Assembly: GCA_964390595.1 (NCBI GenBank)
Contig: CAYMIA010000006.1
Location: 1 to 61,646 of the forward strand
Source of the DNA: an uncultured Gammaproteobacteria bacterium
Lineage (GTDB): Bacteria; Patescibacteriota; Microgenomatia; Daviesbacterales; UBA10151
Direction of reading: 5' to 3'
Length of the DNA stretch: 61,646 nucleotides
This document shows positions 29,122-58,006 of the stretch, in pieces (the first letter of the stretch is position 1; the number at the start of each line of letters is the position of its first letter). The position numbers and the translations under genes are program-made. A model generated the notes under the pieces. The model worked only from the letters and a program-made list of their open reading frames with translations. It made no database searches and was not told the origin of the DNA.

Positions 29122-29826
29122 ATGAACGTTTGGCAAAAAATCATTCCAATTTTTGTAATCCTAACTATTATTGGGGCTGGATCGGCAGGTTACTTCTACC
29201 TCCAATATCAAAAAGCCCAAAAAGAGATTCAAACTATCAAAACTGACCCCAGCACTCTTCAAAAGGCTGCTCAAGAAGAAACCAACCGGTTAATCGCTCA
29301 GGTTGGTAAGTTAATTGAACTGCCAAAAGGTGAACAACCTACAGTCGCGACCATCACTGATATCGATAAGTTAAAAAGCCAGCCTTTCTTCCAACAAGCT
29401 AAAAATGGTAATAAAGTCTTGATCTATACCAACGCCAAAAAAGCCATCCTCTATGATGATAAAACTAATAAAATCATTGATGTTGCTCCGATCAACATTG
29501 GCACACCTTCAGCCCAGCAAGCTCAGCCAGAGCAGCAAGCTAGGGTAGTGATTAGGAATGGTACCACTGTAACTGGTCTGACATCTAAAATTGAAGACAC
29601 TATCAAAAAAGCCTTTCCCCAAGTTGATATAACTGGTAAGGACAACTCCGTCAAGACTGATTATGATAAAACAGTTGTGGTTTACCTTAATGATCAGGCT
29701 AAGGGGGCTGCGGACAGCTTAGCTAAAAGCCTGAATGTGGAGTCAGTTAATAGCTTGCCTCAGGGTGAGCCTAAACCACAAAACACCGACATATTAATCC
29801 TGGTTGGTAAAGACAAGGCCCAATAA
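29122..29826 (+). CDS. Membrane-anchored LytR_C domain protein (second copy)
   Basis: N-terminal TM helix. ARVVIRNGTTVTGLTSKIEDTIKKAFPQVDITGKDN...VVVYLND is LytR_C-like. Confidence 0.55.
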   Translation: MNVWQKIIPIFVILTIIGAGSAGYFYLQYQKAQKEIQTIKTDPSTLQKAAQEETNRLIAQVGKLIELPKGEQPTVATITDIDKLKSQPFFQQAKNGNKVLIYTNAKKAILYDDKTNKIIDVAPINIGTPSAQQAQPEQQARVVIRNGTTVTGLTSKIEDTIKKAFPQVDITGKDNSVKTDYDKTVVVYLNDQAKGAADSLAKSLNVESVNSLPQGEPKPQNTDILILVGKDKAQ

Positions 29827-30182
29827 TCTAAGCAGAACCACAACTAGACTGCTAATCTCCTAAGAACTAATTTGAATAATACAAACTAGATCATTTCAGC
29901 TTCAAATATTATTAAGGCATTGTTAATCACCATATTAAAGACTATATCAAAAAGTACCACTTTATCATCGAGAAGGATCCAAATATCAGCCTAGGATTCA
30001 GCATGCAATAATTCAACAACTTAAGCAACTTCTGCATCTCTTCGTCCGGGCAACTGATTCAGTCTAAGTCCCACTACCAAAGACCACAGAGCCAATGACC
30101 TGGCAGAACTCATTGACTCTTGCGCTAGAACAAATCTCTCTCAATGCCAATTGCATCCCCAGCAATAGTTAGCGAGGCTTCT

Positions 30183-30280
30183 ATCTGAAAGAGAGGCGAA
30201 TGCCTCATCTGAAAGAGAGGCGAATGCCTCATCTGAAAGAGAGGCGAATGCCTTATCTAAAAGGTGAATGTCTCGCCTAA
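30183..30280. repeat. Tandem 24-bp repeat: three good copies plus degenerate copies, each containing the hairpin GAGGC-GAAT-GCCTC
   Basis: ATCTGAAAGAGAGGCGAATGCCTC at 30183-30206 and 30207-30230 are identical. 30231-30254 has 1 mismatch. A degenerate continuation follows (ATCTAAAAGGTGAATGTCTCGCC...). No spacers are present, and stops occur in all frames. Confidence 0.8.
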
Positions 30281-31125
30281 GAGAAGGCAAGTTTCAATTG
30301 AATGCCATAGCGCAATCAACACCCTAGGTGAAATAAGCAAATAAATCTCCTTCTGTTTTTGTTACCAGAAAACTATGGTTTAATTTTGCTGGCCCCTTAA
30401 TTAAAACAGTCTATATTTAAGAGGAAGCGATTAACTGAAAAAGCCTCTTCCTCTATAAATCCAGGAAAAAGCTCTTCTATATTGATAAACTAAATTCACA
30501 AGTCAATAATTTTTGAATTAGAAATATCTTACTATATAAAATACACTCAATTAATATAAATGCATACTATTACAAAACAAAATATATCAATAATTTGATA
30601 GCAGTGCTATCAAAGCAAACTCTAAGCACAGAAAAATATTGACAAGCAAAATGCCCATTTTTTCGGTTGATGCTTTATTTTTTGGTTATTTGGATGATAT
30701 GTTTTACTTTAAAATAATAAGCTAAAATTATCCAGAACTATTTAGGCAAAAAGCAATTTCAAAATTAGAATAAGTCACTAAATTTATTTAACTAAGTTAA
30801 TAATGAACTCAGGTGATTAAGTAAAATTTTTAAGATTTATATTCAAGTAGCTTAAATACTTTTTCATCAACTTATGTTTTAAAATTGAGTATTCACAAAG
30901 GTTTTCACAAATTTTGTTAGGCTCAACTTGAATTATTTAGATATAGATATATTATAAAATGATATAGGAGTTTTATTCTAAAAATTCAATATTTTCAATA
31001 AATGTGCCTAATGCGTTAATTAAAATTAGCTAGTTGATATATTTAGAGATACTTGCTAAAACTCTGTGAAAATCTTAACTTTTCAAGGTAATTACCAACT
31101 ATTTTTGCAGTTTTCACTGAATAAG

Positions 31126-31134
31126 TGGTAAAAT
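31126..31134 (+). promoter_or_regulatory. Extended -10 box TGgTAAAAT, 6 nt upstream of the leuS ATG
   Basis: ataagTGGTAAAATtaatcgATG, with no SD. Confidence 0.4.
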
Positions 31135-31140
31135 TAATCG

Positions 31141-33510
31141 ATGAAAAAATACCAACCCAAAGACATAGAAAAAAAGTGGCAAGATAAATGGGCTGAAGAT
31201 AAGATCTATGAAGTTGATGTAAAGTCAGCGACAGACCCATATTATGTGTTAGTCGAGCTATCCTATTCATCCGGAGATCTTCATATTGGACATTGGTTTA
31301 CCTTTAGCCAGGGTGATGCAGTAGCCAGGTTCAAAAGAATGCAGGGTTATTCAGTCGTTTACCCTAATGGTTTTGATGCCTTTGGTCTTCCCGCAGAGAA
31401 TGCTGCTATTAAAAGAGGGATTCATCCTCAAGATTGGACTTTGTCAAATATAAAAAAAATGAGAGAACAATTTGATACCCTTGGAGCCTCATTTGAATGG
31501 AGGTATACTATGGTCGCATGTGATCCAAAGTATTACAAATGGAATCAATGGATCTTTCTAAAATTATTAGAAAAAGGTTTAGCTTATAAAGGAAAAGTAC
31601 TATCAAACTGGTGTCCTATAGATCAAACTGTATTAGCCAATGAAAATGTCGAAGCAGGTAAATGTTGGAGATGCGGTGCAGAGGTTGTTCAGAAGGAAAT
31701 TGAGCAATGGTTTATTAAAATTACTGACTACGCCGATAGGTTAATTTGGCCTGAGACTCCCAGCGTTGATTGGCCTAAATCTCTCCGCGAAGGCCAAAAT
31801 AATTGGATTGGCAAGAGTGAGGGAACTCTAGTTAAATTTGATTCCGTTGAAGTCTTTACAACCAGAATTGACACTATTTATGGGGCAACTTTTCTAGTTC
31901 TAGCTCCGGAGCATCCTGAGGTTAAAAATTTAACAACCGAAGCTCAAAAAGAGACTGTGGAAAGATATGTTGAAAAAGCTAAAAAGAAAAGTGAGCTTGA
32001 AAGAAAAGAAAATAAAGATAAAACTGGTGTTTTTACCGGCTCAAAAGTTAAGAATCCGTTAAGTGGAGAAGAGGTTCCTGTATGGATTGCAGATTATGTT
32101 CTCCCTGGCTATGGAACAGGGGCAATTATGGCTGTGCCAGCCCATGATGAAAGGGATTTTGAGTTTGCTCAAAAGTTTGATTTAAAAATTGAACAGGTAA
32201 TTGGGTCAAACGATCCGCTCCCTTTTCTTGAAGAAGGTCCATTAATTAACAGTGGAGACTTTAATGATTTAAATTCTTCGGAAGCTCGGGAAAGACTAAC
32301 AAAATATATCGAAGAGCATAATATAGGATCAGAAAAAGTTCAATATCATTTACACGATTGGTCAATTTCAAGACAAAGGTATTGGGGTACACCTGTGCCT
32401 ATAATCCATTGTCCCAAATGTGGCATGGTACCTGTTCCCGAAGCAGACTTACCAGTTGAATTGCCTTATAAGGTCGATTATATGCCCAAAGGCAAACCTC
32501 CTTTGGCTACAGCTGAAGAGTGGGTTAATGTTAAATGTCCCAAATGTGGTGGAGATGCCAAAAGAGAAGCTGAGACTATGGATACGTTTATTGATTCAGC
32601 TTGGTATTTTTTCCGGTATCTTGATCCCAATAACGATCAAGAGATATTTGACCCGACGATTATTAGCAAATGGATGCCTCTTGAGATCTATATTGGTGGG
32701 CCGGAACATACTTTAGGTCATGCATTATATTCCAGATTTATTACTAAGTTTTTCAAAGATATTGGATTAGTTAACTTTGATGAATATGCCAAAAGAAGAA
32801 TCCACCATGGCGTTATTCTAGGTCCAGATGGCGCTAGAATGAGCAAATCTAAAGGTAATGTGGTTAATCCAGACGATCAGGTCAAAGATTATGGAGCAGA
32901 TGCTGTCAGGGTCTATTTAAGCTTTCTAGGCCCTTACGATATAGTTACACCATGGAAAGCCGAAGGTATTAATGGAGTTTATCATTTTCTACAAAGAGTT
33001 TGGGGTTTATCTGAGAAAGTTAAAAAAGCAGAAGTGCCCTCCTCTGAAGACTTAATAATCTTGAATAAAACAGTTCAAAAAATAACTAAAAATTTAGATG
33101 ATCTTAAGTTTAACACTTCAATTGCATCTCTTATGGAATGGTTGAACCATCTTTCCAGGAAGGATTCCATTTCAGAAGTTGAATTTAAAACCTATTTAAA
33201 ACTTTTAGCACCATTTGCTCCACATATGACTGAGGAATTATGGCATGAGCTAGGGGAGAGTGAGTCAATTCATATTCAAAATTGGCCCAAGGTTGATGAA
33301 AAATACCTTGAAGATGATGAAGTAAGTATCGCTATTCAGGTGAACGGTAAGGTCAGAGATCAAATTGTAGTTCAAAAAGAGCTAGTTGAAGACCAGGAGG
33401 CTATTGAGAAGCTAGCACTGGAGAGTCAAAAAGTTCAAAAGTTCTTAAATGGAGCCCAAATTAAGAAAAAAATCTATATCAAAGGCAAAATTTTTAGCAT
33501 AGTATCCTGA
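31141..33510 (+). CDS. leuS: Leucyl-tRNA synthetase
   Basis: KYQPKDIEKKWQDKW, HIGH motif (DLHIGHWF), the CP1 editing region and KMSKS (RMSKSKGN). Confidence 0.95.
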   Translation: MKKYQPKDIEKKWQDKWAEDKIYEVDVKSATDPYYVLVELSYSSGDLHIGHWFTFSQGDAVARFKRMQGYSVVYPNGFDAFGLPAENAAIKRGIHPQDWTLSNIKKMREQFDTLGASFEWRYTMVACDPKYYKWNQWIFLKLLEKGLAYKGKVLSNWCPIDQTVLANENVEAGKCWRCGAEVVQKEIEQWFIKITDYADRLIWPETPSVDWPKSLREGQNNWIGKSEGTLVKFDSVEVFTTRIDTIYGATFLVLAPEHPEVKNLTTEAQKETVERYVEKAKKKSELERKENKDKTGVFTGSKVKNPLSGEEVPVWIADYVLPGYGTGAIMAVPAHDERDFEFAQKFDLKIEQVIGSNDPLPFLEEGPLINSGDFNDLNSSEARERLTKYIEEHNIGSEKVQYHLHDWSISRQRYWGTPVPIIHCPKCGMVPVPEADLPVELPYKVDYMPKGKPPLATAEEWVNVKCPKCGGDAKREAETMDTFIDSAWYFFRYLDPNNDQEIFDPTIISKWMPLEIYIGGPEHTLGHALYSRFITKFFKDIGLVNFDEYAKRRIHHGVILGPDGARMSKSKGNVVNPDDQVKDYGADAVRVYLSFLGPYDIVTPWKAEGINGVYHFLQRVWGLSEKVKKAEVPSSEDLIILNKTVQKITKNLDDLKFNTSIASLMEWLNHLSRKDSISEVEFKTYLKLLAPFAPHMTEELWHELGESESIHIQNWPKVDEKYLEDDEVSIAIQVNGKVRDQIVVQKELVEDQEAIEKLALESQKVQKFLNGAQIKKKIYIKGKIFSIVS

Positions 33511-33866
33511 TAGTATAACCAATTAGCAAATCTAAAATCTAACTGCTAGTACTTAAAAAAATCATTTTAGACTGTTAAGACAACACTTGAGTATTTAGTT
33601 GCTTCTCTTCTTTATCAATTAAGCATAACCTATAAAGATTATACACATTAACCTGTAATGATTTTTCTAAGTTTGTATTGTAATCTTCACTATTTTTCCC
33701 CATCTCCTACTTTTAGCTTCAAAGCTATAAGTCTTAGCTTTAACTTAAGAGTCCAATCTGAATTTGTTAACTGATTAATATTTGGGACAAACCAAAAATA
33801 AGAAATCTACAGATTTTGAAATAACAAATTTGTTAAAATTTGGACCAAAAAATAGCTAACTACTCA

Positions 33867-33896
33867 TTGACAAAGGAACCAATTTTTGTCTAAATT
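33867..33896 (+). promoter_or_regulatory. Candidate sigma-70 promoter TTGACA-N18-TAAATT for the 3025-aa gene
   Basis: TTGACA at 33867-33872 and TAAATT at 33891-33896. Three TTCCTA direct repeats follow at 33911, 33922 and 33933 (11-nt phase) before ATG 33945. Confidence 0.45.
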
Positions 33897-33944
33897 AATG
33901 TGTAGATTATTTCCTAACTTTTTCCTAGGATTTTCCTAAGTATT

Positions 33945-36900
33945 ATGGCTAAAACTGCTCAAGGTAAAAATTTAAGAGGGTTTCTATCAGTTGGTAAAGC
34001 TGCTAAATTTCTTGGTGTCTCTCCTGACACTTTAAGAAATTGGGAAGCAGCTGGTAAACTTGTCCCTGAAAGAACTATCGGTGGCGCCAGAAGATATAGC
34101 CTAGAACAAATTGCTCCTCTCCAAAAAGAACTTAACCTAAGATTCCGGAAACCACTCGGGATGTCAATATCTAAAGCGGCTACCCAGCTTCATGTCTCTC
34201 CTGATACTTTAAGAAATTGGGAAGAACAAGGTAAGCTGATGGCTCACCGGACTGACGGGGGAGCTAGAAGATTTCCTAAATCAGAGATCAGCCGGCTAAA
34301 ATCTGAGCTAGGGGTAAAGGAGCCAGTTTTTGCCCCACTACCTCCAGTATCTATACCAGAGCCTTTGAAAAAATCTAAAAAGATCTGGCTCTTCCCAAGT
34401 TTTGGGTTTGTTGTTTTAATAGCAGTACTACTTATCTTAATCAAATCATCTCCTAACACTAATTTTCTAGATCTAAAGAACTCAAATGACGACCTCAATA
34501 AAAAACTTTACAGTTTAGCTACTACCTTGGAAAAACTTCAAAGTTCATTCTCTAAGCTTCAATCTGGTAAATTAGGAGATACATCTAAAGTCTTAGCTGA
34601 AAATACCGGCGGTGAATTTATTGAAATAAATGCCGATACCAATATTAATGGAATATTAAAAGTCCAAGGCGTCAAGGTTGATGGTAAAGATGTGATTACT
34701 TCTTTAACTCCTGGTTCAGGTATCTCGTTAGGAAATGGGACTGCTCCAACCATTGCATCTACCGATACCCTAAGTAATGTTGTTGCTAGGGGAGCCATAA
34801 CTGATCTGAGCCTGACCTTAAATGGGATACTCAACTTAGGAAATGCTTTGAATCTTGGTAAACTAGCCTCAGATCCTAGTAATGCCACTAACGGTGCTAC
34901 TTATTACAATACTACATCAAATAGTTTCAGATGCTATATAAATGGATCATGGAGTGATTGTGATACGAGTGGAACTGCTGGTCTAACCTCAGTGACTTTA
35001 GGTAGCTCGGATGTGACTGGAACACTGGGAGTTGGTAATGGTGGAACTGGAGTCAGTACAGCTCCTACCTCTGGGCAGCTACTAATTGGTAACTCATCTG
35101 GAAGTTATAGTTTAGCCACCCTCACAGCCGGAACCGGAGTGACTATCACCAACGGCTCAGGAAATATTACTATTACCAGTACTGGAGGCTCTGAAACTTT
35201 AGCAACAGTCACAGCCAGAGGAGCCACAACTGATACAGCCATTACCCTTTCTAACTCCTCTCCCCTGACTTTATCTAACTCAGCTTTTACTACTACAGGA
35301 GGATTACTAAAAACAACTATTACCACTGGAGTCTTGGGGCTAGCGACAGCTGGAACAGACTATGAAGTACCCCTGACCTTTACCAATGGACTGACTAGAA
35401 CTGGTAACTCAGTGGCATTTGGAGGAACCATTGGCTCAGATACTACTATTAATATTGGTTCCAATAATTTTATTATCTCTGGAACCGGTAATGTGGGAAT
35501 TGGGACTTCTAATCCTCAACAAAAACTAGATGTCTCAGGTAATATTAATGTCTTTGATCCAGTTACCCAAAAAGGCACTATCACCACTGGAGTTGGTGGA
35601 GGGTTAGATAAATACTGGACTACCAGTGCTGATTTTAATGCCGCAACCTCTGCTAACTTTTCTGCAGGTATGCAATACCCAGCAAGTGCTAACCAACTTA
35701 ATCTAAATGGGGCCAGTGTTGGGGATGGACACGATGGAGCAGTGACATTTAATTCCAGTACTAATATCAATACAACTAATACTATTACTGGCCGAACTTG
35801 CTCTGATGGTGGTGATGCAGTTAATTACTCAGTGTCTTCCTTAACTTCTACTACTGCTACTCTTTCCTCTACCCCTTCAGCTGGTTGTTTTACAGTTGGA
35901 GATGAATTCGTGTTGGTTAATATGCAAGGTACTTCTTCCAATAACGGCAATGTTGGTAATTACGAATATTTAAACATTCAATCAATATCCTCAAACGTCA
36001 TAACATTTTCTTCCTCTAAGACTAAATTTTACGGTAATGGCACAAATTCTGATGATACTAATATTGGCACTGGCGGAACTAATCAAAAAGTTATGCTTCA
36101 AAGGGTGCCTAATTATTCGAATGTGACTATCAATAATGGAGTTACCATTACACCAACTGCTTGGAGTGGAACTAAGGGAGGTTTGCTAATGTTTAAGGCT
36201 AATGGAACAGTTACGAATAACGGAGCCATAAGTGCTAACGGCTCAGGTTATAGAGGCGGTTCAGCTTCAGACGGGAATGGTGAAAGCTATGATGGGACCG
36301 TTGGATCTGGAGGAACTGGAGGTGGAGTAGCTGGTACTTCAGGCGGAGGTTCATCGACTAATAATAACACTACCTCTTCTGGAACTCGTGGCGGTGGAGG
36401 TGGTGGAGGTGCAGGGGCCGGAGACGGTAACGAAGCTGCTGGAGGTGGAGCTGGAGGCGGTTATGGTGGCGGTGGCGGTGGCGGTGGAGGAGGTGGGGAT
36501 TGTAATGCTGCTGGTGGCTCTGGTGGATCGGGCGGAGGAACAGGGGTAAATGCTGGTGGGGGAAGTGCGGGAGGTAAAGGTGGCGGTGGTATATGTTCAG
36601 GTGATACTGGAGGAAGTGCTCCAAATGCTGGTTCAGGCTCTCATGGAGGTGGATCAGGTGGTGGCGCTGGATCAGGTGCTACTACTGGTCAAGGGGCGGG
36701 TAGCTCAAATAGTTCAGGGGGTGCTGGTGGAGGCGGTGGAGGCGGATTGTATGGATCGGCGACTCTGACTAACTTATTTCCTGGTTCTGGTGGAGGCGGT
36801 GGTGGTCCATCCGTAGGACAAGCTGGAGCTGTTGGAGGTGCCGGTGGTGGTGTAGTCGCTATTCAAGCATTCACATTTACTAATAATGGAGTTGGAACTG

Positions 36901-39900
36901 TTACTTCGAATGGTACTGCTGGTACAACTGCTTCTACTAGCTATGGTTCCTCTGGGGCAGGTGGATCCGGAGGAAGTATTTTTATTAAGGCTTTTAGTGG
37001 CACATTAGGAACAAATTTATTAGTGGCAACAGGCGCTAGTGGTGGAGGTGTCATCAGCGTAGGTGCAGGTGGAGGTAGTGGTGGTGTTGGACGAATTGCA
37101 ATTCAATACATAAGTTTATCTGGAACAACAAATCCTTCTGCCAATACTACGGCTTTATCTACTTGGTATGCAACTGGTGATCAAACTTGGACTTCAGATG
37201 TAGTTGATGCTGGAGTGTCTAATACCTTCCAACCTAATAAATTTACAGCGACTTGGGCACTGGATGGCACAGATAATACTTATCCTAAATTTCAAATTCA
37301 AGGTTCAACAGCTTCTAATTTTCCGAATACTTCCTCCACTAAAACCTATCCTGAAGGAGTTAATGGGACTTCTTCCTCTCAGTACTATCAAAATGGTGGG
37401 ACAGTTTCCATTACCTCGGGAGTTGATACAACAATTGTTAGCCAAGTAACCTCAGCTTTTAGATACTGGCGGGTAATTGCTACAATTAATACTGGTTCAA
37501 CAGCGACAGATACCCCAATTGTTTATGATGTGAGGCTTCAAGATGACAAGCCATTGATCTTTCAATCAAATGGACAATACGTGGGTATCGGTACTACCTC
37601 TCCCAATGCCACTTTGGATATATTATCTTCAAACACCACTGTCCCAACCCTACAGGTAACTAATACTGGGGCAGTCACTGGTAACTTTATCAATACTGCC
37701 GCTGATTCATTAACTACAGGTACAGGATGGAATATGTCTCTTGGAGGGATTACTTCAGGAACAGGGTTAAATTTGACCTCTACCTCAAATACTTTTGGAT
37801 CAGCCTCGTTAATAAGTGCTTCTTTAACTCAATCAGCAGCTGCAAATGGCAACTCAGGAAATTTTGTTAATGTGGCTTATTCACCGACTTATTCGACTGC
37901 AGTTACTACCCCATCGATCTCTGGTAATTTATTGAATTTATCCCGATCAATTACTAGCAGCGCTAGCTTTGCTTCAACTCTGACTGTTTCCGGAGCGATT
38001 GCTTCTATTTCAGATTCAGCTACTCAATTAACAGGCACAATTACCTCGACTGCTGATGTATTGAGGTTGCAACAAAACTATACTAGCAATACTGGGGCTG
38101 TTTTGAATGTCTCAGGCGGTGGAGCAGCCACAGGCTATGCTTTGAGAGTCAATGATGATGGCACATTTACTGATTCTACTCCTTTTGTGATAGATAACAC
38201 TGGTAATGTCGGAATTGGGACAACTGCCCCCAGAGCAGCCCTGGATACTACTGGTCTGTCAGTCAGTGGTAGAGTTTCTTTTTCTGGAACTCAATCTAAT
38301 GGAGGGAGGTTAAGGTTTGCTCCTTATGGTGGTTTATCTGCTCCAAAGAATATGACGCTGCAAGGTAGTGGGACAGTTTCTTCAAATAATGATGGAACCT
38401 TTACTTTAACTGATACAACTGGGGCTTGGACAACTGGCTGGACTTCATCTGCAAGTTATTCAAGACTAGCAGGTAGAGCGTTGGAGTGGACAGTGGATAC
38501 CTCTGGAGTTTCAACAGCTCAGACTGATCATATGATGATTGGTTGGGGTAATGGGACTTCAATGGCTTCAGCCAACAATTACCAAAACATTAATCATGCA
38601 GTTTATTTTGATAAGCCAATTGGGGGAACTTACACCATTGAGGTATATGAATCTGGAAACTCCCGAGGTACCATATACACCGCTACCTGGGGTGACACTA
38701 TTCATGTCATGGTCGTTCTTAGATCAACAGGTGCCTACTACTATTTCAAGAAAAACAACAATCCAAATTGGGAACTTCTCTATGCCAATACCAGCACAGA
38801 TACTACTGCAACTCTCTATCCTCAAATTGCAGTCCACTCAGGTAGGTATGTTATTCATGATATGTTTGCCTATGACCAGGAAAATATTGCTTCTCAGGTT
38901 GGAGACAGCTTGCTGGCGATTGACTCTGGCAATGTGGGAATAGGTGTTACTACTACATCAGCGAAGTTACAGGTTAATTCGACCCAAACTTCTGGAGCAC
39001 TTGGTAAGTTTGGAGCCCCATCTGCCACAACCCTAGCTGGGACTTTAACTGGATTATCGGTGGATACATCAACCAACTATACAGCTACTGGCCAGTCGAT
39101 CACTAACTTGAGCCTAGCAGTTAATCCAACAGTGACAAATACCGGTTCATCAACATATAACTACAAAGGATTAGTAGTAACAGGCAATTCTCTTTCTCAG
39201 ACTACTGCCACAGGCACTGATAACTGGAATGGAGTTGATGTAACTATTCCCTCACTGACAGCTAACTTTGCTGGATCAACTGTTAATGGTAATGGTCTGG
39301 CAATCACTACAGGCACAGTAACTCAGACTTTAGGCACTATTACAGGTAATGGGGTTAATCTGACTCTAGGGACAACCAGTAATGGTGGGACTCAAAATGG
39401 AGTATTACTCTCTACTCCTGCATTAACTCAAACTGCTGCTGTGACTTCTAACTTTACAGGACTTAACTTATCTTCAGCTGGAGCATTAGTGCAAAATACA
39501 GCGGCTGGAACTCTCAATTGGAAAGGTCTAAACATCCAGATGCCCAATATTACTCAAACTACAGGCACAGTTACCTCAAAAGGAATAGCCATTACTGGAG
39601 GAACAGTTACCTCAGGCACAGCGTACTCTTTAGTGGCTGATGCTAATGCTGGCAGCGCTGGCTTTGGAACACTCACCCCCGCCGCCTCATCACTTTTAGA
39701 GCTAAGCTCAACGAGTAAAGGATTTTTACCTCCTAGAATGAACTCAACTCAAAGGGATGCGATTAGTTCACCAGCCACAGGCTTATTTATTTATGATACT
39801 AGCTCAAGTCAATTTGATTTCTATAACGGTGCTACTTGGTCCGCGATTAGTGGATCAACTGTCACTCTTCAAAATGCTTATACCAACTCGACTTCGCCAG

Positions 39901-42900
39901 AGTTAACTTTGGATGCCACTAGGGGGGCCTTAACTATTAGAGATGCCTCTTCTCCTCTGGGAGCTAATTTATTAGAGGTCCAAAACAATGGGGGAGGTTC
40001 AACTTACTTAGCAGTGTCAGCTTCCGGTACCACTTTGGCTAACACTACTACTCTCTCAGCACTAACAAACAACAATGGGGTGCTTTACACTAATGGTTCA
40101 GGTGTGGTTGGACAATCAGCCACTGGAGGGGCTGGAACCTTATGTTTAGTTTCTACAGATGGAGGAGGTCCAGCCTGGAGTAGCTGTTCAGGTTCGGCCT
40201 CAACCTCTTGGTCAAATCTGTCTAACCCATCGGCCAATTTAACTTTAGGAATGGCTGCTAACACCAGCACTTTCAACTGGGATTCACTCACCTCTGGGAC
40301 TGGGCTAACTTTAGCTTCAGCTAGTTTGACTACAGGCAAGGTTTTGGATATTAATACTGGTGCTAACAATACCTTAACCACTGGAAACTTAGTTAATGTC
40401 TCCAGCTCTGCTACTTCAGGTGGTGGCTCAGGATCATCAACTCTGCTCAACTTATCGAGATCAGGGGCTAACTCCAATGCTTCACACACTGCTTATGGAA
40501 TTCAGTCAGCAGTCACTAATACTGGAACAACTTCTACTAATATTGCTGGCTATTTCTCCGCCTCAGGAGCAACTAATAACTATGCTCTAATCGCTGCTGC
40601 AGGTAATGTTGGGATAGGGACCACAGGCCCAGGATCGCTCTTTGAAGTTTCAGGTGGAGGAGCCAAACTGGGTAATCTAGCTGCTCCCACAATTGGTTCA
40701 ATTAGCTGTTCAACTTCAGGTGGAACATTAGGAACTGGGACTTATTACTATAAAGTGACCTATTTAGATGCTAATGGCAATGAATCTGCAGCCTCTGCTG
40801 AAGCCTCAGATACTGTTGCCTCAGGATCAACTGGTTCTTGTACAGTTAATTGGACAGATATTTCAGGTTATACCAGTTATAGAATCTACCGAAGCACTGC
40901 CAGCGGAGTTCAAAATGTTTACTATACCGATACAGCCACACCGTACCTTGATACTAACGCTGCCTCCACCAATGGCAAGCCACCTACAAATGGTACCTCG
41001 CTAACTACTACTGGAGACATTACAACTGGTGGAGTAGTTAAAGGAGGCGTAATTGGTGCCAGGGTTTATAACAGTGGCAACATTAGCATTGGCACCTCTC
41101 AAACTTTCATGACCTTTGATTCTGAGCGTTTTGATACTGATAACATCCATGATACAGGTTCAAACACTGGTCGCCTAACAGCTAGAACTCCTGGAAAATA
41201 TGCCATTTCAGCGCATTACCGATTTACTATAGCCACTAGCGATAAGCAGCTAGCTATTAGATATACAACTGCTGCGGGCGCTTTTTCTGATATTGCTTAT
41301 GCCACTTATACTAGCTCTTGTTGCGCTGGAGAAGGTAGTATCTCCACGATCTATGACTTAAATGCTGGGGATTATGTGACAACCAGTGCTCAATCAATAA
41401 GCTCTGCCTCAGTCTTTGCAGCGGGTAACTACTCACCGGAATTTACTATGATTAGAATTGCTGGTGCAGATTTAGCTGAGAGTTATGGAATTACTGACCA
41501 ATCAATTAATGAAGGGGACATAGTTTCAGTCTCAAGTGATAATCTTTTTAGCAATCAAGGGACAGTTGGCAAATCAACTAAGTCCTATCAAAAAGTAGCT
41601 GGAGTTATCTCAACTAACCCTGCAGTTTTAATGGGGAATAGTGTTGATTCGCAAAATACTAGAGCAATTGGTTTGAAAGGAAAAGTCCCAGTTAAAGTAA
41701 CCAGCCTGGGTGGGCCAATTAAGACCGGAGATGATATTGCTGCCTCAGAAGTACCTGGGTTTGGCAAGAAAGCTCTGAGGCCTGGCTATATTGCAGCTCA
41801 AGCGCTAGAAGATTTTGACCCAAGCAAACTAACATGCAAGGATGTTGACTCCGTAGATAATATAGTTTGGGATCCCAACTCAGGTCTAGGTGGAAAAATA
41901 GAATGCTTCAAAGTCAGCCTACCAGGCACACAAGGCCAGGCCTTGGAGGCACGAACTATTTATGTCTCCAAAATTCTGGCCTTTATTGACACAGGTTTTG
42001 CGGATCATTCCGATCTTTTAAGTAAGATCGCCGCTAATTTTAGTTTGGATGAAAATGGTAATCTGCAGGCACCACTTTTGAAAGTAGGCAAGTTAACTCT
42101 GGATCCAACCTTAGCAGCTAACATCAAACCTGCCGATTCTGGTTCACTTGACCAAACAACTTTACTTGCCTCAGGCACTCCAGCCACCGTGACTGAGAAT
42201 ATGATTCTAGCTGCCCAGGTTGATAACCATGAAAAAAGATTAGCCAACCTGGAAACTAAAGAGGCCACTAATTCAGCAATTTTACTGGATCATGCCCGGG
42301 AGTTAGCTTCATCATCAGCTCAACTAGCCAGTTTAACTGATAATATCTCCTCCCAGTCTGGACTATTAACCGACGCCCAAAATGAAATTAGTGATCTTAA
42401 ACTAAAACTGACAGCCCCGGATATATTACTGGCTACAGCCTCCGCTAACTTGGCAAAAATCAATGTCAGCGATACAATCTCCACAGCTCATTTTGAATCA
42501 CTTGATGCTAAAGTTTCAGACAACTTCAAAGTTTATGGCCAAAGCTTCTTAGCTAACACCACAGTAGCAGGGGACTTTGTGCAAGATGGCACTCTGACAA
42601 TCACCAACGGATCTACCATCAACTCTTATGGCACCATGTATCTCCAAAATTCCCCTCTGGCCGAAAAATTAGACATCTTCAATGGACAGGTCACAATAGA
42701 TAATAAGGGTACATTAGTAGCTCAAAATATATCAGCCAAAACTGTCAAAGTCGCTGAATACAAAGTCATCTCTGGTAAAACTTCAGGTTCAGGAGTAATT
42801 AAAGCTGGGACAAAATCAGTTGATATATTAAATGGGGTAGTCAATCAAACTTCCAGAATTTTGATTACTCCAACCTCCGATACAGATTTTGTGCTTGCCG

Positions 42901-43022
42901 TCACCTCAAAAATTAATGCTGACCCAACTACTAATAAATTAGGCAAATTCACCGTTTCCGCCCCCAAAATAGCCCCGGCAGACCTTAGTTTTGACTGGTG
43001 GATGATCAATGAGGAACCATAA
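33945..43022 (+). CDS. Giant (3025 aa) membrane-anchored protein: two N-terminal excisionase/MerR-type HTH domains, one TM helix, and a tail-fibre-like ectodomain with Gly-rich, FN3-like and C1q-like modules
   Basis: HTH 1: LSVGKAAKFLGVSPDTLRNWEAAGKLVPERTIGGARRY. HTH 2: MSISKAATQLHVSPDTLRNWEEQGKLMAHRTDGGARRF. KKSKK followed by IWLFPSFGFVVLIAVLLILI gives an N-in TM helix. GNVGIGTxxP...L[DE]V occurs five times, a motif typical of tail-fibre-like proteins. There is also a poly-Gly block, plus MTFDSERFDTDNIHDTGSNTGRLTARTPGKYAISAHY (C1q-like). Confidence 0.85.
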   Translation: MAKTAQGKNLRGFLSVGKAAKFLGVSPDTLRNWEAAGKLVPERTIGGARRYSLEQIAPLQKELNLRFRKPLGMSISKAATQLHVSPDTLRNWEEQGKLMAHRTDGGARRFPKSEISRLKSELGVKEPVFAPLPPVSIPEPLKKSKKIWLFPSFGFVVLIAVLLILIKSSPNTNFLDLKNSNDDLNKKLYSLATTLEKLQSSFSKLQSGKLGDTSKVLAENTGGEFIEINADTNINGILKVQGVKVDGKDVITSLTPGSGISLGNGTAPTIASTDTLSNVVARGAITDLSLTLNGILNLGNALNLGKLASDPSNATNGATYYNTTSNSFRCYINGSWSDCDTSGTAGLTSVTLGSSDVTGTLGVGNGGTGVSTAPTSGQLLIGNSSGSYSLATLTAGTGVTITNGSGNITITSTGGSETLATVTARGATTDTAITLSNSSPLTLSNSAFTTTGGLLKTTITTGVLGLATAGTDYEVPLTFTNGLTRTGNSVAFGGTIGSDTTINIGSNNFIISGTGNVGIGTSNPQQKLDVSGNINVFDPVTQKGTITTGVGGGLDKYWTTSADFNAATSANFSAGMQYPASANQLNLNGASVGDGHDGAVTFNSSTNINTTNTITGRTCSDGGDAVNYSVSSLTSTTATLSSTPSAGCFTVGDEFVLVNMQGTSSNNGNVGNYEYLNIQSISSNVITFSSSKTKFYGNGTNSDDTNIGTGGTNQKVMLQRVPNYSNVTINNGVTITPTAWSGTKGGLLMFKANGTVTNNGAISANGSGYRGGSASDGNGESYDGTVGSGGTGGGVAGTSGGGSSTNNNTTSSGTRGGGGGGGAGAGDGNEAAGGGAGGGYGGGGGGGGGGGDCNAAGGSGGSGGGTGVNAGGGSAGGKGGGGICSGDTGGSAPNAGSGSHGGGSGGGAGSGATTGQGAGSSNSSGGAGGGGGGGLYGSATLTNLFPGSGGGGGGPSVGQAGAVGGAGGGVVAIQAFTFTNNGVGTVTSNGTAGTTASTSYGSSGAGGSGGSIFIKAFSGTLGTNLLVATGASGGGVISVGAGGGSGGVGRIAIQYISLSGTTNPSANTTALSTWYATGDQTWTSDVVDAGVSNTFQPNKFTATWALDGTDNTYPKFQIQGSTASNFPNTSSTKTYPEGVNGTSSSQYYQNGGTVSITSGVDTTIVSQVTSAFRYWRVIATINTGSTATDTPIVYDVRLQDDKPLIFQSNGQYVGIGTTSPNATLDILSSNTTVPTLQVTNTGAVTGNFINTAADSLTTGTGWNMSLGGITSGTGLNLTSTSNTFGSASLISASLTQSAAANGNSGNFVNVAYSPTYSTAVTTPSISGNLLNLSRSITSSASFASTLTVSGAIASISDSATQLTGTITSTADVLRLQQNYTSNTGAVLNVSGGGAATGYALRVNDDGTFTDSTPFVIDNTGNVGIGTTAPRAALDTTGLSVSGRVSFSGTQSNGGRLRFAPYGGLSAPKNMTLQGSGTVSSNNDGTFTLTDTTGAWTTGWTSSASYSRLAGRALEWTVDTSGVSTAQTDHMMIGWGNGTSMASANNYQNINHAVYFDKPIGGTYTIEVYESGNSRGTIYTATWGDTIHVMVVLRSTGAYYYFKKNNNPNWELLYANTSTDTTATLYPQIAVHSGRYVIHDMFAYDQENIASQVGDSLLAIDSGNVGIGVTTTSAKLQVNSTQTSGALGKFGAPSATTLAGTLTGLSVDTSTNYTATGQSITNLSLAVNPTVTNTGSSTYNYKGLVVTGNSLSQTTATGTDNWNGVDVTIPSLTANFAGSTVNGNGLAITTGTVTQTLGTITGNGVNLTLGTTSNGGTQNGVLLSTPALTQTAAVTSNFTGLNLSSAGALVQNTAAGTLNWKGLNIQMPNITQTTGTVTSKGIAITGGTVTSGTAYSLVADANAGSAGFGTLTPAASSLLELSSTSKGFLPPRMNSTQRDAISSPATGLFIYDTSSSQFDFYNGATWSAISGSTVTLQNAYTNSTSPELTLDATRGALTIRDASSPLGANLLEVQNNGGGSTYLAVSASGTTLANTTTLSALTNNNGVLYTNGSGVVGQSATGGAGTLCLVSTDGGGPAWSSCSGSASTSWSNLSNPSANLTLGMAANTSTFNWDSLTSGTGLTLASASLTTGKVLDINTGANNTLTTGNLVNVSSSATSGGGSGSSTLLNLSRSGANSNASHTAYGIQSAVTNTGTTSTNIAGYFSASGATNNYALIAAAGNVGIGTTGPGSLFEVSGGGAKLGNLAAPTIGSISCSTSGGTLGTGTYYYKVTYLDANGNESAASAEASDTVASGSTGSCTVNWTDISGYTSYRIYRSTASGVQNVYYTDTATPYLDTNAASTNGKPPTNGTSLTTTGDITTGGVVKGGVIGARVYNSGNISIGTSQTFMTFDSERFDTDNIHDTGSNTGRLTARTPGKYAISAHYRFTIATSDKQLAIRYTTAAGAFSDIAYATYTSSCCAGEGSISTIYDLNAGDYVTTSAQSISSASVFAAGNYSPEFTMIRIAGADLAESYGITDQSINEGDIVSVSSDNLFSNQGTVGKSTKSYQKVAGVISTNPAVLMGNSVDSQNTRAIGLKGKVPVKVTSLGGPIKTGDDIAASEVPGFGKKALRPGYIAAQALEDFDPSKLTCKDVDSVDNIVWDPNSGLGGKIECFKVSLPGTQGQALEARTIYVSKILAFIDTGFADHSDLLSKIAANFSLDENGNLQAPLLKVGKLTLDPTLAANIKPADSGSLDQTTLLASGTPATVTENMILAAQVDNHEKRLANLETKEATNSAILLDHARELASSSAQLASLTDNISSQSGLLTDAQNEISDLKLKLTAPDILLATASANLAKINVSDTISTAHFESLDAKVSDNFKVYGQSFLANTTVAGDFVQDGTLTITNGSTINSYGTMYLQNSPLAEKLDIFNGQVTIDNKGTLVAQNISAKTVKVAEYKVISGKTSGSGVIKAGTKSVDILNGVVNQTSRILITPTSDTDFVLAVTSKINADPTTNKLGKFTVSAPKIAPADLSFDWWMINEEP

Positions 43023-43039
43023 TAAAAACAAAAAGCTTG

Positions 43040-43068
43040 CTTGACGAAAACTTACTAAGTTCATACAA
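43040..43068 (+). promoter_or_regulatory. Candidate promoter TTGACG-N17-TACAAT
   Basis: TTGACG at 43040-43045 and TACAAT at 43063-43068, 27 nt upstream of ATG 43096. Confidence 0.5.
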
Positions 43069-43095
43069 TGCGATTACATAGATTTTACAAAAATT

Positions 43096-43542
43096 ATGCC
43101 CAAAACTGTTAAAAGTAATCCTAATTTAACATCCAAAGCGATCTCTGATTCCAAAAGAGATGACGCCTGGCTTCTTTCTAGGTTAAACTACTTATGGGAA
43201 AGTCATTTTGACAACGTTGATCAAGTCAACCCAGTTTTTATCCGCTTTGGCAGATATTCTAAATTCCGCTTAGGGTCAATCCGGATGGAGCGGACTACTA
43301 AGAAATCCTATATTACTATCACAGGCATGTTTAAAGATCCATCTATCCCCATTGAGGTAGTCGATCATACAATTGGTCACGAGCTTTGCCATTATGCCCA
43401 TGGCTTTTCCTCCCCCAAGCCAAGACTACATAAATATCCTCATCATGGTGGCGTAATCAAGAAGGAGTTAGAATCTAGAGGCTTGCACAAATTAGTTAAA
43501 GCATATAATATCTGGCTCAAAGAGTACCGAAGAACTCTTTAA
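43096..43542 (+). CDS. SprT-like / DUF45-type zinc metallopeptidase-fold protein
   Basis: HExxH motif in VVDHTIGHELCHYAHGF. Small (148 aa) and basic. Confidence 0.5.
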   Translation: MPKTVKSNPNLTSKAISDSKRDDAWLLSRLNYLWESHFDNVDQVNPVFIRFGRYSKFRLGSIRMERTTKKSYITITGMFKDPSIPIEVVDHTIGHELCHYAHGFSSPKPRLHKYPHHGGVIKKELESRGLHKLVKAYNIWLKEYRRTL

Positions 43543-43567
43543 GCTAAAGCCTGCCCAACTTTAAAAT

Positions 43568-44167
43568 ATGGAGCAGGCCAATCAAATTCTCAAAACTTAT
43601 AAAATCCCGGTCGCTTTAAGCCTGGTTGGGCTAGTCTTAATAATTGGTGGAGTGTTCACCTCTGGACTACTTAAACCAACTAACTTTTCCAAAACCAATT
43701 TGCCCAAACAAAGTATCGTCAGCGCTGATGGGATAACTCAAATTAAAGTTGATATCTCAGGTGCCATCAGGACTCCAGGCGTTTTAAGTTTAGCTAGCAA
43801 TTCCCGAGTTGACGATGTCATTAAAGCCGCTGGAGGTTTTAGTAATCAAGCCAATTTGGATTATGTATCTAAACATATAAATCTATCCCAAAAGGTTACA
43901 GACGGTAACAAAATTTACATCCCTTTTGAGGGAGAACAGCTAGCTGTTGTGGCGACTAGTGTAAACAATGTGCAGCAACAAGGAGGCAAAATTGGCATCA
44001 ATAGCGCTACTTCTAGCGAACTCGATACCTTACCTGGAATTGGCCCTACTACCGCGGGTAAGATTATAGCCGGTCGGCCATACTCGGATATCTCAGATCT
44101 GCAAAGTAAAAAGATTGTCACCAACTCTGTCTTTATAAAAATTAAGGATTTAATTGATACCAATTGA
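43568..44167 (+). CDS. comEA: ComEA-type DNA receptor (SLBB plus helix-hairpin-helix)
   Basis: N-terminal TM helix. IKVDISGAIRTPGVLSLASNSRVDDVIKAAGG (SLBB). INSATSSELDTLPGIGPTTAGKIIAGRPY (HhH). Confidence 0.85.
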   Translation: MEQANQILKTYKIPVALSLVGLVLIIGGVFTSGLLKPTNFSKTNLPKQSIVSADGITQIKVDISGAIRTPGVLSLASNSRVDDVIKAAGGFSNQANLDYVSKHINLSQKVTDGNKIYIPFEGEQLAVVATSVNNVQQQGGKIGINSATSSELDTLPGIGPTTAGKIIAGRPYSDISDLQSKKIVTNSVFIKIKDLIDTN

Positions 44168-45168
44168 AAAAAATCTACGCTACTATTTTTTTCATCTTCA
44201 TCATCTTATTTCTTTTCAGGATTCACCAAACCGGTGGAATTCATGATTTCTATAGCCAAAACGATGAGGTGATGCTTTGGAATCTCAGATCAAATTTGGA
44301 AAACAAAGTCACAGAGCTGCTTCCCCAACCTCAAGCTGGCTTACTTTCAGGTATGCTTTTGGGAGTTAAATCTGATTTAACTCCTGATTTTAAATTAGCA
44401 CTTCAAAATACCTCAACTATCCATGTTGCTGTAGTTTCTGGCCAAAATCTAACATTAGTAGCTGGATTTTTCCTGTCTTTGGCCAGCTTTATTGGCCGCA
44501 AAAAAGCAATTGTTCTTTCAACTATGGCCATTTTTCTCTACCTATTTTTAACTGGTTTCCAAGCTCCCTCAATCAGAGCTGCTATTATGGTTTCTTTAGC
44601 GGGGCTAGCTCAAATACTAGGCAAGAACAGAGAAAGCCCCTGGATTTTAGTCCTGACTGGGGCAGCCATGCTTCTTTGGAATCCAAACTGGCTTATTTCA
44701 ATCTCATTTCAGCTGTCTTTTCTAGCCACTTTTGGTGTAATTGTGGTGGCTCCTAAACTAATGGAGCATTTAAAGTTTCTGCCAGATATCATTAAGCAAG
44801 ATATTGCTATCTCAACTGCAGCTTATCTGCTGACTTGGCCAATTATCGCCTTTAACTTTCATCAGTTAAGTCTAATTGGCATAGTTGCCAACTCCGCGGT
44901 GCTCTGGACAGTCTCTTTTATCATGATCAGTGGAGCAGCGGCTCTAGCCATTTCATTCCTCAGTCTATTTCTAGCCCACATTGCAGTGCTGATTCCAGGT
45001 GTTTTCCTAACTTATTTTGTCTATCTCATCAATTTCACCAACTCGCTGCCTTTTTCCAGCATCAGATTAGAAAATCTCCCATTCACATTGGTTCTGGGTT
45101 ACTATCTTTTTATAGTTTCAGGTCTGCTTACTTTAACTATCAAACACCAACAACAATTAAGTATTTAA
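44164..45168 (+). CDS. comEC: ComEC/Rec2 competence channel, competence domain only
   Basis: LLPQPQAGLLSGMLLGVKSDLTPDFKLALQNTSTIHVAVVSGQNLTLVAGFF is the ComEC competence-domain signature. At 334 aa there is no metallo-beta-lactamase domain. TTG start overlaps the comEA stop (TTGA). Confidence 0.75.
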   Translation: MKKIYATIFFIFIILFLFRIHQTGGIHDFYSQNDEVMLWNLRSNLENKVTELLPQPQAGLLSGMLLGVKSDLTPDFKLALQNTSTIHVAVVSGQNLTLVAGFFLSLASFIGRKKAIVLSTMAIFLYLFLTGFQAPSIRAAIMVSLAGLAQILGKNRESPWILVLTGAAMLLWNPNWLISISFQLSFLATFGVIVVAPKLMEHLKFLPDIIKQDIAISTAAYLLTWPIIAFNFHQLSLIGIVANSAVLWTVSFIMISGAAALAISFLSLFLAHIAVLIPGVFLTYFVYLINFTNSLPFSSIRLENLPFTLVLGYYLFIVSGLLTLTIKHQQQLSI

Positions 45169-45179
45169 GGCTATTGTGC

Positions 45180-45185
45180 TATTAT
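45180..45185 (+). promoter_or_regulatory. -10 box TATTAT, 6 nt upstream of argS ATG 45192
   Basis: gcTATTATaaagtgATG. Confidence 0.35.
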
Positions 45186-45191
45186 AAAGTG

Positions 45192-57796: not shown

Positions 57797-58006
57797 TTAA
57801 GCTACCTTCTGAGTTATTCCGAGTAACCAAAGCACCGCTTCTTTCTTATACCTTCTATCACCTCTGGAGTTGATCCTAATGGCAGGTAATTTGCCTCTTT
57901 TACCCCATCTTTTGATAGTTAGGGGGGAAACCCGCAAAACTTCTGCAACTTCTTTAACTGTTAGTAGATCAGGAAGATTCTCTAATGAAACTTTGTCATT
58001 TACCAT
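57797..58006 (-). CDS. Small excisionase/MerR-family HTH DNA-binding protein
   Basis: LLTVKEVAEVLRVSPLTIKRWGKRGKLPAIRINSRGDRRY has the same signature as the two HTH domains at the N-terminus of the 3025-aa protein. Confidence 0.75.
   Translation of the reverse strand: MVNDKVSLENLPDLLTVKEVAEVLRVSPLTIKRWGKRGKLPAIRINSRGDRRYKKEAVLWLLGITQKVA

Follow-up and report, generated by a model that had tools for sequence, protein, structure and literature searches.

The window analysed here is a 61,646-nucleotide (nt) stretch of DNA, positions 1 to 61,646 of contig CAYMIA010000006.1 (GenBank assembly GCA_964390595.1), and the subject of this report is one giant gene on its forward strand together with the short leader that precedes it. 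The open reading frame (ORF) at 33945-43022 (+) begins with ATG, is continuous with no internal stop, and encodes a protein of 3025 amino acids (aa) in which two winged helix-turn-helix (HTH) domains, a linker, a single transmembrane (TM) helix, a coiled coil, a long fibre-like ectodomain, and a C-terminal beta-sandwich follow one another; the N- and C-terminal modules are kept in orthologues. A first-pass annotation, made from the sequence alone, had described the two tandem HTHs followed by the lysine cluster KKSKK and one TM helix, and all of these elements were recovered using Pfam, NCBIfam, the sequence itself, and AlphaFold. Upstream of the gene lie a predicted sigma-70-like promoter and three 11-nt direct repeats, which are proposed as its operator.

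Winged HTH domains

HTH 1 (33981-34130, +; aa 13-62) and HTH 2 (34161-34310, +; aa 73-122) were both assigned to the BldC/excisionase type. Assignment of the N-terminus by profile, which had been suggested in the first-pass annotation, yielded two stretches of Pfam MerR, MerR_1, and HTH_17 matches at aa 13-56 and 73-119, with MerR (PF00376) scoring 81 bits against a cut-off of 28.2. The giant protein matched the NCBIfam excisionase model TIGR01764, and the BldC, HspR, and IS607-transposase HTH models were sub-threshold; for the BldC model NF033787 (cut-off 77 bits), the whole protein scored 59.6 bits and aa 1-165 scored 69.2 bits, summed over the two stretches. The solved structures closest by sequence were the BldC-DNA complexes 6amk and 6ama, and 6amk matched HTH 2 (E 2.6e-5).

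An AlphaFold model of aa 1-202 (mean predicted local distance difference test, pLDDT, of 78) contained two winged HTHs (pLDDT 88-93 for HTH 1), a disordered linker, and helices at aa 152-168 and 175-201. The top Foldseek matches for the HTH were again BldC (6ama and 6amk; TM(target) 0.77-0.82, root-mean-square deviation (rmsd) 1.4-1.6 A, 35-36% identity), followed by the DNA-binding domain of RacA (5i44) and then mycobacteriophage Xis. As modelled, each HTH has the BldC fold, though the NCBIfam cut-off sets it outside the BldC family. The recognition helix, SPDTLRNWE, is identical in HTH 1 and HTH 2, the wing reads GGARR[YF], and neither the residues of the recognition helix nor those of the wing vary in the family alignment. 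Two identical recognition helices fit identical repeat units.

The free 69-aa HTH protein encoded at 57797-58006 (-), which had been reported as being of the same type, is indeed HTH_17/MerR_1/BldC-like, but its recognition helix differs (SPLTIKRW). Its gene has TTGACA and a close -10-like box just before the ATG, and no TTCCTA pair was found upstream of it.

Linker, membrane helix, and topology

HTH 2 is separated from the membrane by about 24 residues of a Pro-rich linker ending in KKSKK (34311-34382, +; aa 123-146), which has low pLDDT and was modelled as disordered. The single TM helix IWLFPSFGFVVLIAVLLILI (34383-34442, +; aa 147-166) is a predicted signal anchor on the evidence of the sequence, the orthologues, and the AlphaFold helix at 152-168. 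It is followed by a juxtamembrane extracellular helix or coiled coil (34467-34550, +; aa 175-201 and beyond), which corresponds to the AlphaFold helix at 175-201 and, by the family alignment, is kept in orthologues. Lysine and arginine residues within 15 positions of the TM helix number four before it and two after it, and among 46 family members the N-terminal side is richer in 28, equal in nine, and poorer in nine. The placement of the HTHs in the cytoplasm by the positive-inside rule, as first proposed, is borne out as a bias and falls short of proof; an N-in topology of the giant protein is favoured.

Promoter and phased repeats

The predicted promoter, TTGACA-N18-TAAATT (or N17-CTAAAT), is located at 33867-33896 (+), with TTGACA at 33867 and TAAATT at 33896, matches at 10 of 12 positions, and gives a predicted transcription start near 33903. 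The promoter motif is present as first annotated. The promoter-like count in this region (2) was not above that in shuffled sequences (mean 2.5), but an alignment of 11 orthologous leaders shows TTGACA(A) and a 17-nt spacer to be conserved in 10 of them.

Three head-to-tail 11-nt repeats, TTCCTAACTTT, TTCCTAGGATT, and TTCCTAAGTAT, occupy 33911-33943 (+), and their designation as a putative operator is based on Tandem Repeats Finder (TRF), a motif count, and orthologue conservation. The three TTCCTA elements noted earlier at a distance of 11 nt are present at 33911, 33922, and 33933, and TRF reports an 11-nt array. The phased repeats fill the leader up to the ATG at 33945, roughly +8 to +41; because a canonical promoter is present as well, they cannot be the -35/-10 elements. 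A search for TTCCTA-N5, also suggested at first pass, located the motif within the window at the giant-gene leader only: TTCMTA-N5-TTCMTA gave 2 overlapping matches against 0.10 expected, a number reached by none of 100 shuffles. No other paired TTCCTA site was found in the 61.6-kb window, and none lies before the downstream genes for p148 (a 148-aa protein), ComEA, and ComEC.

Two other candidate elements were considered and rejected. A structured RNA or riboswitch in the leader was judged unlikely, as no Rfam match was obtained in 29700-34400 at E<=1 and the leader folds worse than its own shuffles (z = +0.85). The palindrome AACAAATTTGTT at 33823-33834, to which the first-pass annotation had drawn attention, is present; as an operator it was rejected, being neither visibly conserved in the orthologous loci nor significant, since at one mismatch the window holds 2 occurrences where 0.79 would be expected, a number also attained in 18 of 100 shuffles.

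Orthologues and family distribution

In a set of species-representative genomes, the nearest relatives of the window were Candidatus Daviesbacteria and other Microgenomates of the Candidate Phyla Radiation (CPR). Searching with the 202-aa N-terminal region retrieved proteins of identical HTH-HTH-linker-TM layout. The smallest of the syntenic orthologues, P0001 (351 aa), occupies the corresponding slot (LeuRS - gene - p148 - ComEA) and shares with the giant protein the N-terminal module and the last ~80 residues (…FDWWMVNEVQ against …FDWWMINEEP in the window protein); by sequence it represents the giant protein in minimal form. It retains the HTHs, the TM helix, the following helix, the tip, and the operator-like repeats, with almost no fibre, and since core and repeats are kept together in this way, the fibre is taken to be a variable insert in a conserved core.

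A genome scan added eleven double-HTH loci (L002-L012), of which nine (L002-L010) adjoin LeuRS and share the neighbourhood; the complete genes encode 736-930 aa, and others encode more than 2100 aa. Syntenic orthologues in Ca. Daviesbacteria, in the order LeuRS - gene - p148 - ComEA - ComEC - ArgRS, have HTH-HTH-TM in frame and range from 351 to more than 2100 aa. The same scan produced eleven single-HTH-TM loci from Daviesbacteria, Blackburnbacteria, Woykebacteria, and others, ten of them longer than 700 aa and several longer than 2000 aa. In all 23 related HTH-TM loci (L001-L019 and L021-L024, from different assemblies), the HTH region and the TM helix share a single frame, uninterrupted by a stop.

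A profile search of 1.84 billion cluster representatives gave 40 matches at E<=1e-30 and 1039 at E<=1e-10. Two N-terminal HTHs followed by a single TM helix were present in 95 of the 144 representatives newly retrieved in this way, up to 5310 aa in length, which settles in the affirmative the earlier question of whether the layout recurs. When the window protein and seven earlier homologues were scanned beside the new representatives, the layout was found in 98 of 163 proteins.

The gene stays near LeuRS, p148, ComEA, ComEC, and ArgRS despite inversions (L204, with P0066; L001-L010; window 31141-46844). It is divergent from LeuRS in L002, L004, and L006, and in L204 it lies on the opposite strand between ComEA and ComEC. 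The neighbouring p148 (43096-43542, +; 148 aa) contains an HExxH motif (IGHELCHYAHG), is 57-71% identical across Daviesbacteria, and is located always directly before ComEA-ComEC and usually right after the HTH-TM gene. Comparison of p148 with Pfam, NCBIfam, and PHROGs gave no match; from its motif it is a candidate small metalloprotease.

Repeat geometry and HTH copy number

Leaders were compared over the 160 nt upstream of the start in the window and in twelve double-HTH relatives. A common layout was found in 11 of these 13 (the window and L001-L010), consisting of TTGACA, a 17-nt spacer, a -10-like box, and two to three contiguous 11-nt units of the form TTC[C/A]TAA[C/G]TTT, which abut the ATG in seven loci. 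Three 11-nt units also precede L203, an independent member of 5310 aa. In the single-HTH relatives the TTCCTA half-site occurs as an inverted repeat, AGTTAGGAAATTTCCTAACT in L023, CTTAGGAATATTCCTAG in L021, and AATTCCTAGGAATT in L015, L018, and L024. When hexamers were counted in the 200 nt upstream of 24 family genes, TTCCTA/TAGGAA ranked first (23 of 24, against 137 of 1433 background windows; p ~8e-23) and TTGACA was the second most enriched.

Geometry was scored by one fixed rule, in which a pair of TTCCTA half-sites could contain no more than one mismatch, direct pairs being read on the coding strand. A direct 11-nt pair was present in 10 of 14 double-HTH loci, none of 11 single-HTH loci, and none of 1209 background sequences (Fisher p 5e-4), and an inverted pair in 3 of 14, 11 of 11, and 13 of 1209, respectively (Fisher p 1e-4); the loci come from related species, so both p-values overstate independence, and the pattern is clean nonetheless. 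L009 and L010 fail the direct rule only through TTCATA in both units. In the closest relatives the geometry of the putative operator follows HTH copy number, a single HTH going with a palindrome and a double HTH with 11-bp direct repeats. This points to a protein that probably reads the region of its own promoter. There is also a hint of co-variation in a small sample, S[IV]DTLRNW being found in five of six single-HTH proteins with TTCCTAGGAA sites and in none of six with TAGGAA-N2-3-TTCCTA. Sites lie upstream of the -35 box in L011, L012, L018, and L024, and this, together with the unstructured leader, makes a DNA site more parsimonious than an RNA element.

Both kinds of gene can reside on one contig (L003 with L013), and L008 and L022 are from one assembly. 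As judged from their leaders, double- and single-HTH paralogues share the half-site, and cross-regulation between them could occur.

Several further observations were made on the leaders. A tail TTT(T)GA(A/G)GC(C/T) and an A-rich run are located 3' of the repeats in L001, L004-L006, L011-L013, L016-L019, L021, L023, and L203; in the double-HTH alignment this conserved tail sits where other orthologues have TTTTATG(G/C)CT. L204 has a 13-nt direct pair. L208, a distant double-HTH-TM giant of 2729 aa, has two perfect 16-nt direct repeats, TTTGGGTAAGTTTGCT, with a 22-nt period just before the ATG (~60 nt upstream of 801); its two HTHs differ from each other, and the repeats would fit a composite site for a heterologous pair. 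P0019 (L202 2467-4338; 623 aa) has eight tandem HTHs before one TM helix, apparently of two alternating sequence types, and a perfect 28-bp palindrome, CCTATGCATTGCTTAAGCAATGCATAGG, lies at L202 2436-2463, just 5' of its ATG.

Ectodomain and distal tip

The extracellular part comprises about 2860 residues, and conservation within it is confined to the juxtamembrane helix and a terminal piece of ~83 residues. When divided into six segments and compared with Pfam, the ectodomain gave no domain at E<=0.1 apart from spurious coiled-coil matches, and Peptidase_S74 was absent from the window protein in this comparison. No PHROG match (only the HTH region matches PHROGs) and no PDB sequence match were obtained for the ectodomain, and a homologue search with the C-terminal 140 aa returned one match. 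The earlier description of this region as "tail-fibre-like" was not supported by Pfam, PHROG, or PDB sequence comparison and is a compositional impression, a weak fold match being confined to the last ~83 residues.

These residues form a predicted beta-sandwich (42771-43019, +; …RILITPTSDTDFVLAVT…FTVSA…FDWWMINEEP) at the distal tip, a module shared with L001, L002, L003, L007-L010, and L017. The C-terminal model was built from a three-sequence alignment and reached a pLDDT of 81-90 for the last ~83 residues only. Foldseek matched this thin-alignment model weakly to 7eea, 9k4a, and 6ct8 (E 0.01-0.06, rmsd 2.0-4.2 A over ~82 columns), which are C-terminal domains of phage tailspikes and pyocin fibres. 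A fibre with a binding tip is plausible. Precomputed domain matches include Peptidase_S74 in the relative P0057 (the gene at L011/L205) and Laminin_G_3 in P0152. A long Gly-rich low-complexity stretch (GGGGG, AGG, and SGG runs) extends over ~36250-36950 (aa ~770-1000 of the giant protein), where the GC skew also has a local peak (+0.19 in 36001-38000).

Proposed mechanism and alternative explanations

We consider it probable, with appreciable room for doubt, that the membrane-anchored, BldC-like tandem HTH binds the direct repeats of its own leader and autoregulates the gene, probably by repression. The product would be a type II (N-in) single-pass membrane protein with the HTH pair in the cytoplasm about 24 residues from the membrane and, outside, a coiled-coil stalk, a long variable fibre, and the conserved beta-sandwich tip. 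The HTH pair would bind the 11-bp-phased TTCCTAA direct repeats head-to-tail on one face of the DNA; a period of 11 bp would present successive sites on the same helix face, suiting a reader held so close to the membrane, and the surface protein would in this manner exert feedback from the membrane on the transcription of its gene. The effect is likely to be repression because the site lies downstream of the -10 box. A possible extension is that the nascent N-terminus could bind in cis during coupled transcription, translation, and membrane insertion. Autoregulation through the phased repeats had been proposed at first pass, and the conservation of the repeats and the match of their geometry to HTH number fit it on comparative grounds.

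Several points weigh against this interpretation, in addition to the relatedness of the loci given above. The leader contains three repeats, whereas each chain has two HTHs, a mismatch for which this reading does not account. The window has no second paired site and shows no regulon, and a different factor could be the one that uses the site. As the precedent of RodZ illustrates, a membrane protein may also carry an HTH that does not serve DNA binding. The distant subfamilies are mixed, L206 and L207 having no direct repeats and the eight-HTH protein P0019 having the 28-bp palindrome. Among the matches listed in a motif-to-gene metagenome scan (126, in at least 120 stretches), none adjoins such an HTH gene, and the two-unit pattern among them is dominated by an unrelated dispersed repeat, so the motif alone is not unique to the family.

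The alternative that survives best, although we regard it as rather unlikely, extends the autoregulatory reading and was the one preferred in the first-pass annotation: a signal-dependent tethered regulator, in which engagement, loss, or oligomerisation of the fibre would alter DNA binding, or proteolysis would free the HTH pair, as in Notch, MYRF, and anti-sigma factors. The conserved tip with its weak similarity to phage receptor-binding tips, the Peptidase_S74 domain of one relative, the HExxH protein p148 that usually adjoins the gene, and the short, Pro-rich, low-confidence linker between HTH 2 and the TM helix are all in its favour. No protease site, sensor domain, or partner was identified, however, p148 follows LeuRS and not the HTH-TM gene in L002, L004, and L006, and the nearly fibre-less 351-aa orthologue keeps the HTHs and the repeats, which indicates a core function independent of the fibre. 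The eukaryotic MYRF and Notch-type factors likewise combine a transcription-factor module with a large structural portion on the extracellular or luminal side. In MYRF a Peptidase_S74 domain of the phage tailspike kind stands between the DNA-binding domain and the membrane, whereas the S74 domain of P0057, which is listed behind the N-terminal HTH matches, presumably belongs to the ectodomain, and there is no sign of cleavage here.

It is unlikely, and more so than signal dependence, that the HTHs do not read the repeats at all. The repeats might then be bound by another factor, such as an OmpR/PhoB-type response regulator or a free BldC-like protein, or form an unstructured, pyrimidine-rich translation leader, and the HTHs might make protein contacts as in RodZ. 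OmpR/PhoB-type response regulators also use direct repeats of ~11 bp, a free BldC-like protein is encoded at 57797-58006, and the 11-nt-phased motif occurs in unrelated metagenomic repeats as well. In addition, most genes of the window look leaderless with few Shine-Dalgarno sites, and the giant-protein gene is exceptional in having a ~42-nt leader made up of repeats. These points are countered by the repeat geometry, which follows the HTH copy number of the protein encoded downstream, by the sites upstream of the -35 box, which would be outside the mRNA, by the invariant recognition-helix and wing residues, as expected of a DNA reader, and by the different recognition helix of the free 69-aa protein. 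RodZ shares with the giant protein an N-terminal cytoplasmic HTH, a single TM helix, and an extracytoplasmic domain, and its HTH binds MreB. That HTH is of the XRE type (HTH_25) and is combined with DUF4115, neither of which was matched in the giant protein by Pfam, and we know of no cognate repeats in the RodZ promoter.

A tether between DNA and membrane appears quite improbable. In this case the HTHs would hold the locus or nucleoid at the membrane with little effect on transcription, either as RacA does or to aid co-transcriptional insertion of a very long protein. The RacA DNA-binding domain was the second-best fold match, the site belongs to the very gene that encodes the protein and that has to be expressed at the membrane, and the gene keeps its LeuRS, ComEA, and ComEC neighbourhood through rearrangements. 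Yet a site between the -10 box and the ATG could hardly be occupied without an effect on transcription, and orthologues as small as 351 aa retain it. RacA, the Bacillus chromosome anchor, also links DNA to the envelope through a MerR-like winged HTH; it is soluble, reaches the membrane through DivIVA, and binds many GC-rich sites spread over the chromosome, not one leader. It also binds as a symmetric dimer (PMC5859096).

Finally, the joining of a small HTH-HTH gene to a secreted giant by an assembly or frameshift error, with a true start at TTG 34366 (L-KKSKKIWLF…) that would yield a classical signal-anchor N-terminus, has a negligible likelihood and was excluded by the in-frame fusion in 23 of 23 related loci and 95 of 144 newly found representatives and by the short orthologue that keeps both terminal modules. 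The start downstream of the HTHs, or frameshift near 34330-34380, that the first-pass annotation had allowed for is contradicted by the same data; on these sequences the gene is one real gene, and the HTH-TM fusion is no artefact.

Comparison with known systems

BldC of Streptomyces (6ama, 6amk) is, like the domains described here, a minimal MerR-like winged HTH with neither coiled coil nor effector domain, and it binds direct repeats as head-to-tail multimers (PMC5859096). It is a free 68-residue protein that multimerises on DNA with a 9-bp repeat unit (AATT-N4-C), whereas the giant protein has two covalently linked units tethered to the membrane on a chain of 3025 aa and a unit of 11 bp (TTCCTAA…). 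Classical MerR regulators have an N-terminal winged HTH of the same Pfam family, followed by a dimerisation coiled coil and an effector domain; here HTH 2 is followed by the low-confidence Pro-rich linker and the TM helix, and the MerR_1 match covers only profile positions 1-47 of 69. The palindromic operator of classical MerR proteins is inside a 19-20 bp spacer, in contrast to a spacer of 17-18 nt and direct repeats downstream of the -10 box.

The first-pass comparison with ToxR and CadC applies as an analogy only. ToxR, CadC, and TcpP also have, on one polypeptide with a single TM helix, a DNA-binding domain in the cytoplasm and a further domain outside it, but ToxR and CadC have an OmpR-type winged HTH and small periplasmic sensors and regulate other genes. 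The giant protein has a duplicated BldC/excisionase-type domain, a structural fibre that in the family reaches thousands of residues, and its own leader as the only visible target; it had no Trans_reg_C match in Pfam, and no ToxR/CadC-type sensor was found among the ectodomain Pfam matches. As classified from its domains, the giant protein is outside ToxR/CadC, classical MerR, and, by the NCBIfam cut-off, BldC. A 2023 census listed 50,302 transmembrane transcription regulators, with MerR (386), MerR_1 (350), and HTH_17 (151) among their DNA-binding domains, and the definition used there, a DNA-binding domain plus at least one TM region, covers the giant protein (PMC10269533). In the literature no description was found of BldC-type HTHs fused to giant CPR surface proteins, nor of their operators, the relevant papers being the general census and those on BldC. 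By the census definition, the HTH-HTH-TM-fibre proteins are an uncharacterised family within the transmembrane transcription regulators, with an architecture that is widespread but unremarked.

Other features of the window

The window also encodes LeuRS, ArgRS, ribosomal protein L7/L12, ComEA, ComEC, a sortase, and many membrane glycosyltransferase-like proteins, and by gene content it reads like a small-genome cellular bacterium. A second giant ORF at 157-6777 (+) has a GTG start and encodes 2206 aa without an HTH, a C-terminal SH3_3 being its only recognised domain. In most window genes no Shine-Dalgarno sequence is present, and a TAnAnT-like box stands only 6-12 nt 5' of the ATG (for example at 15520, 17246-19198 (-), 19234, 21934, 31141, 46876, 53743, and 55692), which suggests that leaderless or very short-leadered mRNAs are widespread in this organism. 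A 24-nt tandem repeat, ATCTGAAAGAGAGGCGAATGCCTC, is located at 30183-30263 (3.4 copies, 96% matches) inside a 1.3-kb AT-rich region; the ORF-poor stretch around it (29827-31140) wholly contains no ORF of at least 60 aa and gave no Rfam match.

The dispersed repeat encountered in the metagenome scan (L082-L201; metagenome contigs of, for example, the series Ga0049105_, Ga0126335_, Ga0209255_, and Ga0056114_) consists of arrays of 11-nt-phased TTTTTCCTAAG followed by the conserved tails …GATTTTTTGAAAATCGGGCCCC or …TTTATCGAAAGTTATAAAGTTAAG…. No BldC-type HTH was encoded in the 455 kb recovered around it, and these arrays resemble the subterminal repeats of a mobile element that belongs to another organism.

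Significance

CPR bacteria (Patescibacteria) live attached and have small genomes in which few regulators can be recognised, and the family described here is a concrete candidate case for the control or sensing of large surface proteins in this group. It offers a predicted DNA-binding module of ~125 aa, a putative operator of 33 bp, and a natural series of single, double, and eight-fold HTHs. If the autoregulatory reading is true, the class of transmembrane regulators would come to include a BldC-type domain joined to a structural fibre, the locus would provide a simple model of how very costly genes are controlled by feedback from their products, and many proteins that are listed only as "excisionase/MerR family DNA-binding protein" could gain a proper annotation. 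A broader and speculative proposal, which we regard as rather unlikely, is that in Microgenomates (CPR) a whole family of surface fibres, the longest exceeding 5000 aa, would double as transcription factors for their own genes, the BldC-like HTHs on the cytoplasmic stub reading the TTCCTA operators of their own and paralogous fibre genes and the nascent or installed fibre reporting its presence, loss, oligomeric state, or engagement of a partner cell directly to its promoter. If true, this would be a one-protein circuit for counting or contact-sensing surface fibres in organisms with very few conventional regulators.

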